Assembly (NCBI GenBank): GCA_022703355.1
Contig: JAKLDU010000004.1
Span: forward strand, 1-58,178
Direction: 5' to 3'
DNA from: Deltaproteobacteria bacterium
Lineage (GTDB): Bacteria > Desulfobacterota > Desulfomonilia > UBA1062
Length of the DNA: 58,178 nt
Shown: positions 4,898-52,658 of the stretch, piece by piece
Position numbering within the stretch: position 1 is the stretch's first letter
Layout of the letters: every line of letters begins with the position of its first letter
Program-made: the position numbers and the translations under genes
Notes under the pieces: model-generated
Database searches by the model: none
What the model saw: the letters and a program-made list of their open reading frames with translations, nothing else
What the model was told of the DNA's origin: nothing

Positions 4898-5023
4898 CGT
4901 CTCATGGGGGCGGTATCGGAAAAACCCCGGTAAGATATGAGCCTGCCAGGGGGAAATTTCGTCCTGCAGGCGATTTTTTTGTTATTGAGCTGTGCAGGGC
5001 GATGGGCATAGAAGAAAGGTGAT

Positions 5024-6778
5024 ATGCGAGAACAGGAAAGACAGCTGCGGGCCCTGTTCGTGGACCTGCGTACACGGGAATCACGGCGTGAAGAGCTGTC
5101 CCCCTATGTGACCCGGGTTTTCCTCGGCGGCAGGGGGATAGGCGCATGGGTCATGGGCTCCTGCCCCACCGTGCACCCCCTCGACCCGGACGCCCCCCTG
5201 GTGTTTTCCACGGGCTTGCTCACCGGCTCGCGCGTGCCTTCCTCCAGCCGCATGGTCGTCTCCGCGTTTTCCCCGCTCACCGGCACCGTCTGCAGCGCTT
5301 CCGTCGGCGGGCGGCTCGGCCTGTCCATGAGGCGCTCGGGCATCGACCTCATCCGGGTCGCCGGCCGTGCGGAGGGGCCCGTCGTGCTCGTCATAGACGA
5401 CGGCCGCGTGGGCTTCGAGCAGGGGGACATCCCGGCAGACGAGCCCCTGAGCGGAGTTTTCGGGAGGCTCGAAGGCGCCGGGTGGTCCGCGGCGGCGGTG
5501 GGCAGGGCCGCCTTCCAGGGGTGCAGGTACGCCTCGGTCATGGTGGATGGCGCCTTTGCCTCGGGCAGGGGCGGCCTGGGCCTCGTCATGGCCTCGAAAA
5601 ACCTCCGCGCGCTGCGGGTGCGCGGCACCGGGACCGCGAAGGCCGTCGACCCGGAAGGTGAGGAAAAGGCCCGCACGGACATCCTCCGGCTCTTCGACGC
5701 GTCACCCGCCATCATGGGCGCCTCCGGGCTCAGGCACTTCGGCACGTCGGCGCTGGTGGACCTCATGGCCTCCCGGCGGATGATGCCCACTGCCAACTTC
5801 CGAAGGACCTACTTCCCCGGGTACCGGTCCTTCTGCGCCAGCGCGATCAGGGAGCAGGAGGCCCCGAAGCGCTACGCCTGCCCGGGATGCCCCATCGCCT
5901 GCAAGGGAAAGGGGCGGGCCGGGATCCCCGAGTTCGAAACCCTCTCCCACTTCGGGGCCTTGAACGAGAACGCGGACCTGGGCGCCATCATCGAGGCCAA
6001 CCGCATCTGCAACGAGGCAGGGTTCGACACCATCACCGCGGCCTCCACCATCGCCTGCCTCGCCGAGATCAGGGGCGTGAGGTACGCGGGTCGGGAGCTC
6101 GTGGACAAGGTGCGCGAGATCGCGTCTCTGACCGGGGACGGCCCCCTGCTCCAGCTCGGCTCCGCGGAGCTCGCCCGCAGGATGGGGCGGCCCGAGCTGT
6201 CCATGAGCGTGAAAGCCCTCGAGATGCCCGCCTACGACCCCCGCGGCGCCTACGGCATGGCCCTGGCCTACGGCACGTCGACCCGGGGCGCCTGCCACCT
6301 CCGGGCCTATCCGGTCTCCCACGAGATCCTGCGCAAGCCCGTGGCCACGGACCGGTTCTCCTTTTCCGGCAAGGCCCGGATCATCAAGATATCCGAGGAC
6401 CTCAACGCGGTCATCGACTCCCTGGGCGCGTGCAAGTTCGCCTTCTTCGGCGCCTCCCTCGAGGAGTACGCCAAGGGCTTCTCTTCCGTGACCGGGATCG
6501 AGGCGGACACCCAGGACCTGCTCTCCTTCGGGAACACGATCTCAAGCCTGGAGCGGCACATCAACTCGCTCAGGGGTTTCCGCCGGGAGCACGACCTCCT
6601 GCCCGAGCGGTTCTTCACGGAGCCCGGCTCCTCCGGGGCGGGCATCGAGGTCCCGCCCATAGACCGGAAGGCCTTCGAGGAAGCCCTCGACCGGTACTAC
6701 CGTATCCGGGGGTGCTCGCCCGACGGGACCTTCCCGCAGGACAAGGCCCGGGAGATCCAGTCATGCATGAGCAGGTAG
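5024..6778 (+). CDS. aor: aldehyde:ferredoxin oxidoreductase family (tungstopterin, 4Fe-4S)
   Basis: 584 aa. N-terminal VFLGGRGIGAWVM. Cluster ligands C-P-G-C-P-I-A-C plus TRGACHLRAYP. DSLGACKF pterin-binding-type motif. SD GAAAGG lies before the ATG. Confidence 0.9.
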   Translation: MREQERQLRALFVDLRTRESRREELSPYVTRVFLGGRGIGAWVMGSCPTVHPLDPDAPLVFSTGLLTGSRVPSSSRMVVSAFSPLTGTVCSASVGGRLGLSMRRSGIDLIRVAGRAEGPVVLVIDDGRVGFEQGDIPADEPLSGVFGRLEGAGWSAAAVGRAAFQGCRYASVMVDGAFASGRGGLGLVMASKNLRALRVRGTGTAKAVDPEGEEKARTDILRLFDASPAIMGASGLRHFGTSALVDLMASRRMMPTANFRRTYFPGYRSFCASAIREQEAPKRYACPGCPIACKGKGRAGIPEFETLSHFGALNENADLGAIIEANRICNEAGFDTITAASTIACLAEIRGVRYAGRELVDKVREIASLTGDGPLLQLGSAELARRMGRPELSMSVKALEMPAYDPRGAYGMALAYGTSTRGACHLRAYPVSHEILRKPVATDRFSFSGKARIIKISEDLNAVIDSLGACKFAFFGASLEEYAKGFSSVTGIEADTQDLLSFGNTISSLERHINSLRGFRREHDLLPERFFTEPGSSGAGIEVPPIDRKAFEEALDRYYRIRGCSPDGTFPQDKAREIQSCMSR

Positions 6779-7902
6779 CCAGATACCTCGGGAAGCTCCA
6801 GCGCCACGGCCTGATCGAGGGTCCCGGGGACGCCGCGCTCTACGGCCTCGACGATGAGATCCTCACCAATGCAGGCAGGGTGCCCGGGACCATGCGGGAG
6901 CTTTTCGCCCTCCTCAACATCAACAGCCTCATCATTGCCAGGCCCGGGCCCCTGTTCAGGTACGTCATCGGGCACCTCTGCCTGCGAGAGCCCGGGCTCA
7001 TCTGCCCGCGTGACTGCGAGAGCCTCACCTTCATCCACGACATCCCCGTGGTGGAAAGCTTAGACCCCCGCCGGACCGCCCAGGCCCTGAACCGGAGAAA
7101 AGGCTGCATCGTAGGCGGGGAGCTCGTCGTCACCACGGGCACGGTTTCCCTGGAGCAGGCGTTCATCTCGCTGAGCTCCATCCTGTTTGCGACCTTCGTG
7201 AAGTTCTTCGCCGATGCCCTCAACGGCCTGCACGGGTACGGGGAGCCGGTCCCCCGGGGCATGCTCGACGCCCTGCCCGGCCTGCTGGCCCGAGCTGAGC
7301 CCCGCTCCTCGGCCGAACCCCTGCCCGAAAGGGCGCCCGAGGGCGAGGACGAGATCCTCCGCGCCATGGACCAGGCGGGCAAGGCCGTGGTGAACGCACG
7401 CCTGGTGGACTCCTTTTTCGGGAACATCTCGTACCGGGACGGAGGCGCCGTCTACATTTCCCAGACGGGGTCGTCCCTGGACGAACTGCCCGGGTACATC
7501 GACCGGGTCCCGCTGGACGGCTCGTCGACCTGCGGGATCACCTCGTCCTCCGAGCTCACCGCGCACGTGAAAACCTATGAGCTCACCGGCGACAACGCCA
7601 TCCTCCACGGGCATCCGCGGTTCTCGGTGATCATGTCCATGTTCGGTCACCCCCTTCCCTTCGGGGACCGGCGCTCGATAGGGGGCGTGCCCGTGGTGTC
7701 GGGCGAGGTGGGCGCGGGTGCCCGGGGCCTCGTGCACACCCTGCCGGAGGCCATGCGGGAGTTTCACGGGGCGATCGTGTCCGGGCACGGGGCCTTTGCG
7801 AGCTGCACGGGGTCGTTCAGGGAGGCATTCACGAGGCTCATGGACATGGAGACCCTGTGCTACAGGACCTGCTGCGCGCTGGTGCGGGAAAAGCTCGGCT
7901 GA
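6763..7902 (+). CDS. class II aldolase/adducin-domain protein with an unassigned ~190-aa N-terminal extension
   Basis: Internal ATG (MHEQVARYL...) of track ORF 5887..7902; counting 379 aa back from the stop gives 6763. C-terminal half reads FGNISYRD..ISQTGSSLDEL..SSELTAHVKTY..ILHGHP..GHGAF, as in fuculose-phosphate-aldolase-like proteins. Overlaps the aor stop by 16 nt. Confidence 0.75.
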   Translation: MHEQVARYLGKLQRHGLIEGPGDAALYGLDDEILTNAGRVPGTMRELFALLNINSLIIARPGPLFRYVIGHLCLREPGLICPRDCESLTFIHDIPVVESLDPRRTAQALNRRKGCIVGGELVVTTGTVSLEQAFISLSSILFATFVKFFADALNGLHGYGEPVPRGMLDALPGLLARAEPRSSAEPLPERAPEGEDEILRAMDQAGKAVVNARLVDSFFGNISYRDGGAVYISQTGSSLDELPGYIDRVPLDGSSTCGITSSSELTAHVKTYELTGDNAILHGHPRFSVIMSMFGHPLPFGDRRSIGGVPVVSGEVGAGARGLVHTLPEAMREFHGAIVSGHGAFASCTGSFREAFTRLMDMETLCYRTCCALVREKLG

Positions 7903-7919: not shown

Positions 7920-7948
7920 TTGACGGATATATATCGCTTCGATATACT
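7920..7948 (+). promoter_or_regulatory. near-consensus sigma70-type promoter TTGACG-17-TATACT with a palindrome in the spacer
   Basis: TTGACG at 7920-7925, 17-nt spacer, TATACT at 7943-7948, 28 nt before the ATG at 7976. The spacer begins with the self-complementary GATATATATC (7926-7935). The stretch is AT-rich in a GC-rich genome. Confidence 0.5.
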
Positions 7949-7975: not shown

Positions 7976-9061
7976 ATGGGCGACGAGGTGTACAGGAAGC
8001 TGGCCGGGGTGCTCGACACCATTCCCAACGGCTTTCCGGCCACGGAAAGCGGCGTCGAGATCAGGCTTCTCAAGAAGATCTTCACCGAGGACGAGGCGGA
8101 GCTCTTCTGCAGGCTGCGCCTGACCTTCGAGACCGCGGCGCAGATCGCGGAGCGCACGGGAATCCCCCTGGAAGGGCTCGAGGAGAAGCTTGTCGCCATG
8201 GGCTCGAAAGGCCAGGTCTTCGCCATCCGGCTGGGGAGCCTGTGGATCTTCCGGATGCTGCCCTGGGTGTTCGGGATCTTCGAGTTCCAGCTCCACCGTC
8301 TCGACAGGGAGCTTGCCGACCTTCACGAGGAGTACGAGGAGGCCTTCGGAAAGCAGTTCTTTTCGGCAAAGCCCCAGCTCATGCAGACGCTGCCCATCGA
8401 GGAGACCATCACCCCGGGCCACGAGGCCCTGCCCTACGAGCGCATCTCTTCCCTCATCGAGCACAACCAGTCCTTCATCGTCAACGAGTGCATCTGCAAG
8501 AAGCAGCAGGCGCTGCGGGGAAAGCCCTGTGGAAAGCCGGCGGAGGTGTGCCTGGGCATGGCGCCCGTCCCGGGCGTCTTCGACGACTCGCCCAACGGAA
8601 GAGCGATCTCGCGGGCCGAGGCGTACGAGCTCCTGAAGAAGACCGAGGAGCTGGGCCTCGTGCACCTCACGAGCAACATCCAGAACGGGCAGATCTTCAT
8701 CTGCAACTGCTGCTCGTGCTGCTGCGGCGTGCTCAGGTCCATCACCGACCTGAAGATTCCGGCAGCCGACGTGATCAATTCCCACTACTGCGCCTCCATC
8801 GACGCCGGGGCGTGCACCCGGTGCGGGCTCTGCGCCGACGAGCGCTGCCAGGTGGGGGCCATCGTCGAGGACGGGGACGGGTACCGCGTCGTCCGGGAGG
8901 GGTGCATCGGGTGCGGCCTGTGCGTGAGCACCTGCCCGTCGGGCGCCCTGTCGCTCGTCCACAAGCCCGTCGAGGAGCGGGCCGTCCCGCCGGTCACCGA
9001 GAGCGACTGGAATGACGAACGGGGCCGGAGCCGGGGAATCGACTTTTCCCCGTACCGGTGA
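7976..9061 (+). CDS. Cys-rich iron-sulfur protein: helical N-domain, CxC..C..C and CNCCSCCC motifs, C-terminal 2x[4Fe-4S] ferredoxin domain
   Basis: 361 aa. Motifs ECICKKQQALRGKPCGKPAEVC, ICNCCSCCCGVL, then ACTRCGLCADERC and CIGCGLCVSTCP. SD GGAGG at 7965-7969. Paralogue at 38593..39588. Confidence 0.8.
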   Translation: MGDEVYRKLAGVLDTIPNGFPATESGVEIRLLKKIFTEDEAELFCRLRLTFETAAQIAERTGIPLEGLEEKLVAMGSKGQVFAIRLGSLWIFRMLPWVFGIFEFQLHRLDRELADLHEEYEEAFGKQFFSAKPQLMQTLPIEETITPGHEALPYERISSLIEHNQSFIVNECICKKQQALRGKPCGKPAEVCLGMAPVPGVFDDSPNGRAISRAEAYELLKKTEELGLVHLTSNIQNGQIFICNCCSCCCGVLRSITDLKIPAADVINSHYCASIDAGACTRCGLCADERCQVGAIVEDGDGYRVVREGCIGCGLCVSTCPSGALSLVHKPVEERAVPPVTESDWNDERGRSRGIDFSPYR

Positions 9062-9072
9062 AGGGAGGCGCC

Positions 9073-9639
9073 ATGGATGTCCGGTCCATCATTCTGGGCT
9101 TCCTCATGGGGCAGAGCATGACGGGCTACGAGCTCAGGAAGTTCTTCTCCCTTTCGTTTTCCTTTTTTTCCGGCCTGAGCTACGGGTCCATCTACCCGGC
9201 GCTCAGGAAGCTCGAGGCCGAGGGCCTCATCTCCATGGCCCTGCAGGTCCGGGACGCCTCGCCCAACCGGAAGGTCTACACCATCACCGAACGGGGCCGG
9301 GAGGCGTTCCTGTCGTCCATCAGGGAGCCGGTCCCCTTCGAGCACCAGCGCTACAACTTCCTCATGCACCTCTTCTTCTTTGCCCACCTGAACCCCGGGG
9401 AGCGGGTCGGGCTGGCCCGAAACCACCTGAAGTCGGTGGAGAAGGTCAGGGAGTCGCTGGAAGAGGTGGCGCCCGAGGTGGAGAAGGGCGCGGACCGGTT
9501 CCAGCTCCTGACCTTCAGGTTCGGGCTACGGTTCTTCAGCGACCTGTGCGCCAACGTGGAAGACGCCCTCAGGGCCCTGGAGGAGGATGCCGCGGCAACA
9601 AAAGGGAAGGAGGCCGCAAAGGCCCGCTCCCGTACATAA
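9073..9639 (+). CDS. PadR-family transcriptional regulator
   Basis: IILGFLMGQSMTGYELRKFF...YGSIYPALRKLEAEGLI...RKVYTITERGREAF is the PadR winged helix. ATG at 9073 follows AAGGGAGG. GTG at 9058 (GTGA overlap with the upstream stop) is the alternative start. Confidence 0.85.
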   Translation: MDVRSIILGFLMGQSMTGYELRKFFSLSFSFFSGLSYGSIYPALRKLEAEGLISMALQVRDASPNRKVYTITERGREAFLSSIREPVPFEHQRYNFLMHLFFFAHLNPGERVGLARNHLKSVEKVRESLEEVAPEVEKGADRFQLLTFRFGLRFFSDLCANVEDALRALEEDAAATKGKEAAKARSRT

Positions 9640-9656: not shown

Positions 9657-10730
9657 ATGAAGGTGCTGGCGGTCGATTCGAGCCCGAGAAAGGTCGGGCA
9701 CAGCAAGGTGAAGCTCATGCTCGACGCCCTGGTCGAGGGTCTGCGGGATGCGGGCGCCGGGGTGGACGTGGTGCGCCTGAAGGACCGGAAGATAAAGAAC
9801 TGCATCGGGTGCATGAGCTGCTGGACCAAAACGCCGGGGGTCTGCGCCCTCAAGGACGACATGACGGCCGAGCTCTTCCCCCTGTGGCTTGAAGCCGACC
9901 TGGTGGTCCACGCCTCGCCCCTCTACCACTTCACGATCAACGCCGCCATGAAAACCTTCATCGAGCGGACCCTGCCCGTTCTCCAGCCCTTCCTCATCTC
10001 CTACGGGGGGGAGACCGTGCACCCCCTGAGGCACAAGCACCCGCACGTGGCCTTCCTGTCCGTGGCGGGGTTCCCGGAGATGTCCGTCTTCGACCAGCTT
10101 TCTTCCTGGGCCAATTTCATCTACGGCCGGGTGGGCATGCTCACCGCGGAGATTTACCGGCCCAACGCGGAGGTCCTGACAGTGCCCGCGTTCCGGCACA
10201 AGGCGGCGGAGGTCCTCGATGCCACCCGCCAGGCGGGCAGGGAGATCGTGCTCCAGGGAAAGGTCTCGCCGGGCACCATGGCCGCCGTTACCAGGGACCT
10301 GGTGGAGGATGTGAAGCTTTTCCACGAGGTGACCAACATCATGTGGAAGACCTGCCTCGAGCAGGGGCTGAGCCCGGCGGAGCTGAACGACGGGAAGATC
10401 GTGCCGGTGCCCGGAACCATCCGGGACTTCCAGAAGGTCATGCGCTTCGCGTTCAACCCCGGTGGGGCCCAAGGCCTGAAGGCCGTCGTGCAGTTCGACT
10501 TTACGGGCAGCCCCGGGGGCTCCTGCCACTTCACCATCGACGGCGGCAGAATCGAAGCATCCGACGGCCCGGCCCCGCATCCGGACGTGACGGTCGCTTC
10601 GGACTTCGGCCTGTGGATGGACATCATGGCGAAGAAGAAAGACGGAGGGCAGATGTTCCTCGAGGGGAAATACCAGGCCCGGGGTGACTTGAACCTCCTG
10701 CTGAGGATGAACGACCTCTTCGGTCAGTGA
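9657..10730 (+). CDS. Isf-like iron-sulfur flavoprotein (flavodoxin-like/NADPH-dependent FMN reductase fold) fused to a C-terminal SCP2 sterol-carrier domain
   Basis: Internal ATG (MKVLAVDSSPRK...), residue 216 of track ORF 9012..10730, preceded by AAAGGAGG. Compact CIGCMSCWTKTPGVC (Cx2Cx2Cx7C) motif. C-terminal ~100 aa (VVQFDFTGSPGGSCHFTIDGG...FLEGKYQARGDLNLLLRMNDLF) looks like SCP2. Confidence 0.75.
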   Translation: MKVLAVDSSPRKVGHSKVKLMLDALVEGLRDAGAGVDVVRLKDRKIKNCIGCMSCWTKTPGVCALKDDMTAELFPLWLEADLVVHASPLYHFTINAAMKTFIERTLPVLQPFLISYGGETVHPLRHKHPHVAFLSVAGFPEMSVFDQLSSWANFIYGRVGMLTAEIYRPNAEVLTVPAFRHKAAEVLDATRQAGREIVLQGKVSPGTMAAVTRDLVEDVKLFHEVTNIMWKTCLEQGLSPAELNDGKIVPVPGTIRDFQKVMRFAFNPGGAQGLKAVVQFDFTGSPGGSCHFTIDGGRIEASDGPAPHPDVTVASDFGLWMDIMAKKKDGGQMFLEGKYQARGDLNLLLRMNDLFGQ

Positions 10731-52584: not shown

Positions 52585-52658
52585 TGGCTGGGACGGGTGG
52601 ATTCGAACCACCATAACGAGATCCAAAATCTCGTGTCCTGCCATTAGACGACATCCCA
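52585..52658 (-). tRNA. tRNA-Gln (anticodon UUG), CCA encoded
   Basis: Hand-folded cloverleaf. Acceptor UGGGAUG/CGUCCCA (one G-U). D arm GUC(U)..(G)GAC. Anticodon stem CGAGA/UCUCG with loop UUUUGGA. T arm GGUGG-UUCGAAU-CCACC. Discriminator G plus CCA. 74 nt. Confidence 0.9.

Follow-up and report, generated by a model that had tools for sequence, protein, structure and literature searches.

The aor gene and its partner

Near one end of a 58,178-nucleotide (nt) stretch of DNA (hereafter the window), a gene for an aldehyde:ferredoxin oxidoreductase (AOR) is followed on the same strand by a gene for a protein resembling class II aldolases, and it is this gene pair that is analysed here. The window is contig JAKLDU010000004.1 (positions 1 to 58,178, forward strand) of the Deltaproteobacteria bacterium assembly GCA_022703355.1 (Desulfobacterota; Desulfomonilia; UBA1062), with a G+C content of ~64%. 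The coordinates of the pair and of the other features mentioned in the text are collected in Table 1.

The first gene, aor, is immediately preceded by a Shine-Dalgarno-like sequence, read from the sequence, and a second ribosome-binding site, GGGAG, is found within the aor coding region, 8 nt before the ATG of the aldolase-like gene. A preliminary description of this DNA had placed the aor stop codon inside the next gene, and the resulting overlap of 16 nt is indeed seen in the sequence. It had also allowed that the true start might be a downstream codon that abolishes the overlap, which turned out not to be the case: Met1 of the aldolase-like protein falls in the same alignment column and is invariant in 19 homologues (43-75% identity), ruling out both longer and shorter starts. 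In related loci the aligned start is ATG, GTG or TTG, with one exception in which the match runs from residue 18 onward. The frame of the second gene is open from position 5887, and a start at this upstream position was considered and rejected, as the invariant Met1 lies at 6763 and the stretch ahead of it, rich in Arg, Pro and Gly, is a shadow of aor.

Neither a molybdenum cofactor riboswitch nor any other Rfam family was found upstream of aor. On the 3' side of the pair there is a promoter-like site (one match found versus 0.3 expected), and this consensus match suggests that the gene after the pair may constitute a separate unit. It was also observed that contigs of three public assemblies (two metagenomes and one metatranscriptome) all break at one place near the aor 3' end, at about 6660-6790 of the window, as would be expected of a spot that varies between strains and splits assembly graphs.

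Table 1. Position of the gene pair, its parts and other features in the window
Feature	Coordinates	Strand	Remarks
Shine-Dalgarno-like sequence AAAGGTGAT	5015..5023	+	immediately 5' of aor start
aor, AOR-family tungsto/molybdopterin enzyme, 584 aa	5024..6778	+	AFOR_N + AFOR_C
Ribosome-binding site GGGAG of second gene	6750..6754	+	within aor coding region
Overlap of aor stop and aldolase-like gene start, 16 nt	6763..6778	+	
Aldolase-like gene, 379 aa	6763..7902	+	
N-terminal domain, aa 1-160	6763..7242	+	class II aldolase fold without metal/phosphate ligands
Linker, aa 161-194	7243..7344	+	variable, partly helical; poorly conserved columns; helix 165-177 in models
C-terminal class II aldolase domain, aa 195-379 + stop	7345..7902	+	PF00596
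C-domain ligand codon, E264	7552-7554	+	
C-domain ligand codon, H282	7606-7608	+	
C-domain ligand codon, H284	7612-7614	+	
C-domain ligand codon, H342	7786-7788	+	
C-domain phosphate-site residues			G220, N221, S223, T235, G236, S262, S263
Promoter-like site TTGACG-17-TATACT	7920..7948	+	3' of pair; consensus match only
Fe-S protein, 361 aa	7976-9061	+	C-terminal 2x[4Fe-4S] ferredoxin domain; unnamed ~260-aa N-terminal part
PadR-family regulator	9058-9639	+	overlaps preceding stop by 4 nt
FMN-reductase-fold + SCP2 protein	9657-10730	+	CX2CX2CX7C near N-terminus
Membrane protein, 1352 aa	839-4897	-	C-terminal GGDEF; divergent upstream of aor
tRNA gene	52588-52658	-	sole Rfam match in window

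The AOR protein

The aor product has the domain architecture of the AOR family, with matches to AFOR_N (E 1.3e-50) and AFOR_C (E 2.1e-94) far over the gathering scores. Its best solved relative is the Pyrococcus furiosus AOR (1aor, E 1.3e-87), with the canonical enzymes 9g7j and 9mqx also among its matches and FOR, WOR5 and BamB giving much weaker ones. When aligned to 1aor, the protein retains the cysteines of the [4Fe-4S] cluster (CxxCxxxC as CPGCPIAC and DSxGxC as DSLGAC), the pterin-contact motifs and the active-site equivalents of Glu313 (in PEFE) and His448 (in GACH), and Tyr312 is replaced by Phe. As far as can be read from these motifs the enzyme shows no sign of degeneracy, tungsten and molybdenum not being distinguishable at this level. 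A sister clade, here called the Geobacter type (579 aa), is at most 58% identical to any of the AORs found paired with an aldolase-like gene (about 50%).

Two aldolase folds in one chain

The preliminary description had assigned the C-terminal half of the second protein to the class II aldolase/adducin domain on account of HGHP and GHGAF motifs. This assignment holds: the PF00596 match (E 2.7e-16) is limited to residues 204-367, the motifs lie at 282-285 and 341-345, and the best PDB profile match of the C-domain is the structure 2fk5 (E 2.7e-17). The first ~190 residues had been left without a name, and a sequence-only search of the PDB with the N-domain indeed gave no significant match; fold and profile comparisons, however, identify it as another class II aldolase fold. 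An AlphaFold2 model of the full-length protein, built on a 19-sequence alignment, reached a predicted local distance difference test score (pLDDT) of 88 and a predicted template modelling score (pTM) of 0.90, the latter indicating a definite packing of the two domains. It displays two α/β domains (1-160 and 195-379) with the same secondary-structure order, joined by a variable linker, and a Foldseek search with the full model placed structures of FucA (L-fuculose-1-phosphate aldolase) on top (2flf, E 3e-9). In a Foldseek search of the PDB with a separate model of the first 180 residues (pLDDT 90), the top 50 matches were nearly all members of the class II aldolase superfamily, the best being 2fk5 (E 4.7e-6, template modelling score 0.63), and alignment of the N-terminal against the C-terminal half with hhalign gave a probability of 84% (E 7.7e-6). 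These results mean that the N-terminal ~190 residues are an internal duplicate of the aldolase fold. According to the models, the chain therefore contains the class II aldolase fold twice in tandem, the N-terminal copy being ligand-less.

In terms of named families, the protein scored under every NCBIfam cut-off, the best being PRK08660 'aldolase' (125.6 bits versus a cut-off of 203); FucA_Meth (25.2/250), PRK06833 (22.5/264) and PRK08087 (17.6/264) gave far lower scores. The public names of its relatives are generic, as in 'class II aldolase/adducin family protein'.

Both halves were aligned with Escherichia coli FucA, the numbering of which agrees with the mutant names of PDB entries, and residues were then counted over 186 distinct family members. 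In the C-domain, the equivalents of FucA G28, N29, S31, T43, S71, S72, E73, H77, H92, H94 and H155 were found in 19/19 homologues and that of G44 in 18/19. Over the 186 members, G28, N29, S31, T43, S71, E73, H77, H92 and H94 have their equivalents in 186/186 members, S72 and H155 in 185/186 and G44 (G236 here) in 169/186. The loss of the zinc-binding histidines, which would have pointed to another kind of protein, is thus not observed, since E264, H282 and H284 are present in all 186 members and H342 in 185. The metal site of three His and one Glu and the phosphate pocket are confined to the C-domain, the N-domain having none of the metal or phosphate ligands of FucA.

What the N-domain does have is an almost invariant loop, P82-x-D84-x-E86-x3-F90-x-H92-D93-x-P95, which in the hhalign register corresponds to the FucA loop bearing Tyr113. 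In FucA this loop extends into the active site of the neighbouring subunit. Our reading is that the aldolase-like subunit may be a pseudo-dimer with one composite active site. Arg304, one residue before the Tyr113-aligned position of the C-domain (aligned to HY of 2fk5), is nearly invariant. In addition, 100 of the 186 members carry a four-cysteine insertion, C-x4-5-C-x5-6-C-x3-C, between HGHP and the next strand (the region of residues 285-310 in the window protein), which could be a zinc or iron-sulfur site. It occurs, for example, in the protein P0085, at locus L046 and in two of the fusions described below that were examined (P0274 and P0310), and is missing from the subgroup to which the window protein belongs.

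Recurrence of the pair across genomes

A collection of one genome per species was scanned with two family-specific peptide patterns, which showed relatives of the aldolase-like protein to be encoded at at least 540 loci (about 540). The best 80 of these were taken for analysis, and AOR neighbours were located by tblastn with the window proteins. An AOR gene was found upstream on the same strand at 72/80 loci, directly adjacent at 66/80, so that synteny with aor is by no means a peculiarity of this genome, as the preliminary description had considered possible. Among the other eight loci, three are truncated on the upstream side, one (L043) has an AOR gene of which the 3' end alone is present and four have unrelated neighbours. 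The hosts are annotated as Thermodesulfobacteriota/'Deltaproteobacteria', Nitrospirota, Planctomycetota, Acidobacteriota/Aminicenantes, Omnitrophota, Chloroflexota, Leptospiraceae, Victivallales and others, and include Desulfobacterium sp. N47 and the isolate Fundidesulfovibrio agrisoli SG106 (L060, with an unfused pair). An Archaeoglobaceae genome has the same pair, with a 13-nt overlap.

The close spacing of the two genes is a general feature. They overlap, by 29 to 4 nt, at 53 of the 72 loci, with 16 nt (23 loci), 4 nt (15 loci) and 13 nt (7 loci) as the recurrent values, and are separated by 0-11 nt at a further 13. The tight coupling put forward in the preliminary description is borne out by this spacing. 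Longer gaps, of 89-873 nt, occur at 6/72 loci, and the open reading frames (ORFs) that lie between the two genes in L055 and L058 are unrelated; an additional genome has two genes, one of them for citrate synthase, between AOR and the aldolase-like gene. A Shine-Dalgarno-like motif was present in the AOR coding end at 45 of the 62 loci checked. The distance matrices of the two proteins are strongly correlated (r = 0.87, Mantel p = 0.001, 67 pairs), which argues that the pair has been inherited and transferred as a unit.

Natural fusions of the two proteins

When 1.84 billion representative proteins were searched with a profile made from the N-domain alone, 175 clusters matched at E <= 1e-3, of which 137 reached E <= 1e-10; these were mostly proteins of 380-410 aa or fragments. 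Five proteins of 958-1076 aa were found to carry AFOR_N, AFOR_C, the N-domain and Aldolase_II in a single chain. The N-domain profile matches them at residues ~580-800, the order of the parts is the same as the gene order, and a linker of 20-45 residues joins the AOR C-terminus to the usual N-terminus of the partner. The cluster cysteines and the aldolase ligands are intact in these fusions, which are mutually 34-43% identical. One was recovered both from the NCBI assembly GCA_900167125.1 and from an independent assembly of a sequencing run, and another from 12 contigs of several samples, meaning that they are not assembly artefacts. Natural fusions in the same order as the separate genes are classical evidence that two proteins act together physically.

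A gene for 1-deoxy-D-xylulose-5-phosphate synthase lies, in one lineage, directly downstream of the fusion P0274 (L087-L089) and also 4.5 kb upstream of the Geobacter-type AOR gene in L082. Since the 80 loci do not share this proximity, it is probably a coincidence.

Neighbouring genes

All-against-all clustering of the ORFs of the 80 loci was used to search for a third gene travelling with the pair, and none was found: apart from the shadow ORFs of the pair itself, every family occurs in at most 10/80 loci, these being regulators, acyl-coenzyme A synthetase, deacetylase, amidase and similar families. The route suggested in the preliminary description, in which a deoxy-sugar phosphate would be cleaved and the aldehyde oxidised, remains unsupported, as no kinase, isomerase or transporter gene family for fucose or rhamnose is found near the pair in more than 10/80 loci.

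The genes that follow the pair in the window were likewise rejected as parts of a conserved module, for the Fe-S protein, the PadR-family regulator and the flavoprotein are not conserved with it. At none of the 80 loci did tblastn find a counterpart of the 361-aa Fe-S protein, which for this reason looks like a lineage-specific insertion after the pair; it may be the electron acceptor for AOR in this organism. The protein with the flavin mononucleotide (FMN)-reductase fold and SCP2, which in our reading of its sequence resembles iron-sulfur flavoproteins, is common only to the closest relatives, the flavoprotein following the aldolase-like gene within ~80 nt in L003 and ~750 nt in L024, and lying ~3 kb downstream, behind a PadR-like gene, in L001. 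On the other side of the pair, the divergent arrangement of the GGDEF gene is kept in L001, L003, L004, L024 and L025, all among the closest relatives. Beside the Geobacter-type AOR, a gene for a HAD-family hydrolase abuts (L082, 5341-7740) or overlaps (L084, 9345-11740) the AOR start, with yhbY before it; in these two related genomes, another phospho-metabolite enzyme thus lies beside a closely related AOR.

Comparison with known systems

The window AOR shares with the canonical AORs (1aor, 9g7j, 9mqx) the same two Pfam domains, the cysteines, the pterin motifs and the equivalents of Glu313 and His448. The canonical enzyme, however, is not known to need a partner subunit, whereas here a lyase-type, non-redox partner is coupled or even fused to it. 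An AOR-family catalytic subunit with a co-encoded partner is also found in the AorABC enzyme of Aromatoleum (8c0z), in WOR5 with its polyferredoxin (6x6u) and in the benzoyl-CoA reductase BamBC (4z3w), all of them also among the matches of the window AOR to solved structures. To our knowledge, the known partner subunits of AOR-family enzymes are all electron-transfer proteins, with Fe-S or flavin; the partner described here has instead a class II aldolase fold and, in the subgroup of the window, no redox cofactor motif.

FucA has the same fold as both domains of the aldolase-like protein and shares with the C-domain its metal-binding residues, its Glu base and its pocket for phosphate. It differs in that the protein studied here has tandem folds in one chain, one of them ligand-less, and no counterpart of Tyr113 or of the C-terminal tail; its genomic partner is AOR (72/80 loci) and not fucose genes, and its NCBIfam scores are below the cut-offs. 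It can be placed in the class II aldolase superfamily but does not qualify as FucA proper. DrdA of Bacillus thuringiensis (6btd/6btg), an aldolase of the dihydroxyacetone phosphate (DHAP) shunt and also with the class II aldolase fold, gave a weak profile match (E 2.2e-4) and a Foldseek match. This enzyme produces DHAP and acetaldehyde from a ubiquitous by-product of S-adenosylmethionine (SAM), which would be a plausible type of substrate here, but it is no closer to the present family than other FucA-like proteins, and the kinase and isomerase genes with which it is encoded are missing beside the pair.

A functional parallel would be provided by DmpFG and BphIJ, in which a metal-dependent aldolase passes a volatile or toxic aldehyde to a tightly bound oxidising partner encoded by an adjacent gene. 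The logic is the same as that proposed below, although the likeness is one of functional analogy only: the folds are unrelated on both sides, DmpFG and BphIJ cleave to pyruvate and not to DHAP, and their partner is an acylating dehydrogenase dependent on nicotinamide adenine dinucleotide and coenzyme A and not a tungsten/ferredoxin enzyme. The natural fusions reported here speak to association of the two proteins, not to a tunnel of the DmpFG type. Full-text literature searches found no published description of an AOR with a class II aldolase-like partner. Fitness papers on Desulfovibrio treat aor only as an acetaldehyde- or chlorate-related enzyme.

Proposed function and alternative readings

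The AOR and the aldolase-like protein can be regarded with high confidence as one functional unit, and the pair is very probably an undescribed two-part enzyme. The opposite view, that two independent enzymes merely share an operon, could appeal to the fact that adjacency is not always functional and to the six loci with long gaps, some of them holding unrelated ORFs, but order, strand and overlap are kept across phyla and domains, the proteins co-evolve and divergent natural fusions contradict it, making it very improbable.

As to what the unit does, we lean, with somewhat better than even confidence, towards a reaction that begins with a phosphorylated carbonyl substrate, from which the aldolase-like subunit would free an aldehyde and hand it to AOR. 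In the proposed mechanism, translational coupling would deliver the two parts of the enzyme in equal amounts for assembly into a stoichiometric complex. The C-domain would provide a FucA-type site, with three His and a Glu arranged round a divalent metal and a phosphate pocket holding a DHAP-like enediolate. The N-domain would probably act as the neighbouring subunit of a FucA tetramer, and its loop would help to build a composite active site or serve for contact with AOR. In its simplest form, the reaction would be the retro-aldol cleavage of a ketose 1-phosphate to DHAP and an aldehyde, which would go directly to the tungstopterin site of AOR without being released. AOR would then convert the aldehyde to the acid, the two electrons passing via the [4Fe-4S] cluster to ferredoxin. 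Since the pair has no kinase, isomerase or transporter gene as a conserved companion, the substrate seems likelier to be a phospho-metabolite that is central or ubiquitous than a growth sugar, which is a preference and not a result. The candidates would include 5-deoxyribulose-1-phosphate and methylthioribulose-1-phosphate, derived from by-products of radical-SAM and polyamine metabolism, as well as a pentulose-1-phosphate and DHAP.

Several observations weigh against this aldehyde hand-over. No counterpart of FucA Tyr113, which serves as acid/base in the aldehyde half-reaction, is conserved, family members having F, Y, S, R or H at the aligned position, and the FucA C-terminal tail is missing from the C-domain; both absences make a chemistry other than retro-aldol cleavage possible. 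A pair without pathway genes leaves the choice of substrate a guess. Four of the aldolase-like genes have no AOR gene within the 3.7-8 kb of upstream flank available, and the dependence is one-sided, the Geobacter-type AOR clade being without an aldolase-like neighbour at two Geobacteraceae loci. Finally, the one metatranscriptome containing the region offers no operon evidence, the contig depth being flat over genes of both strands.

The first alternative is that the same unit runs in the opposite direction, AOR reducing a carboxylic acid with low-potential ferredoxin and the aldehyde being trapped by aldol addition to DHAP, giving a ketose 1-phosphate (for example, pyruvate to methylglyoxal to 6-deoxy-5-ketofructose-1-phosphate). 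AOR enzymes are reversible in principle, the site for a DHAP-type enediolate is fully conserved and the hosts are strict anaerobes with reduced ferredoxin; tight coupling and fusion would be especially useful for capturing an unfavourable intermediate. Nevertheless, biosynthetic genes are not linked to the pair in the 80 loci and the aldehyde-activating residue of the Tyr113 type is not conserved; this direction is considered unlikely.

An equally doubtful proposal is that the aldolase-like protein serves this AOR clade as a subunit with a structural or regulatory role or one in cofactor maturation. Half of it is a ligand-less domain, the dependence is one-sided, the aldolase-like gene nearly always having an AOR while related AORs occur without it, and we know of no dedicated insertion chaperone for AOR-family enzymes. 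Against this proposal, the set of metal, Glu-base and phosphate residues in the C-domain is (nearly) invariant in the 186 members, down to ~40% identity, for which it is difficult to account unless the protein acts chemically on a ligand. It would also be unusual for a maturation factor to be permanently fused to its enzyme.

Slightly less probable still is a phosphate elimination, in which DHAP would be converted through a metal-bound enediolate to methylglyoxal and the latter oxidised by AOR to pyruvate, amounting to a ferredoxin-reducing bypass from triose phosphate to pyruvate, with the toxic intermediate kept inside the complex throughout. Such a reaction would account for the conservation of the DHAP/metal part of the FucA site alone, with the aldehyde-side residue and the C-terminal tail absent; the module would need no other conserved gene, as befits a central metabolite, and fusion would suit a very toxic intermediate. 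It is nonetheless a reaction that we infer, no methylglyoxal synthase with the class II aldolase fold is known to us, and the nearly invariant N-domain loop is explained by it no better than by aldehyde release and hand-over.

Significance

Tungsten enzymes of the AOR family have usually been seen either as stand-alone, broad-range aldehyde scavengers or as subunits accompanied by electron-transfer partners. Here, a large clade of AORs is tied to a partner of the lyase type in many anaerobic bacterial phyla and at least one archaeon, and the pairing and the fusions point to a specific reaction in which an aldehyde is made or consumed but not set free. A more far-reaching idea, which we consider improbable, is that of a self-contained, ferredoxin-linked triose-phosphate shunt running from DHAP through enzyme-bound methylglyoxal to pyruvate or, in the opposite sense, reducing an acid and fixing the aldehyde onto DHAP. 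If true, it would represent a new route linking central carbon metabolism with low-potential electrons in strict anaerobes, and the first case of a tungsten enzyme permanently joined to a lyase acting on C-C or C-O bonds.

The identity of the substrate would give a function to a widespread pair of proteins that now have generic names. It might also show by what means a common phospho-metabolite is removed in strict anaerobes with a gain of reduced ferredoxin and, once the substrate is identified, the pair would offer a natural scaffold for channelled aldehyde chemistry.

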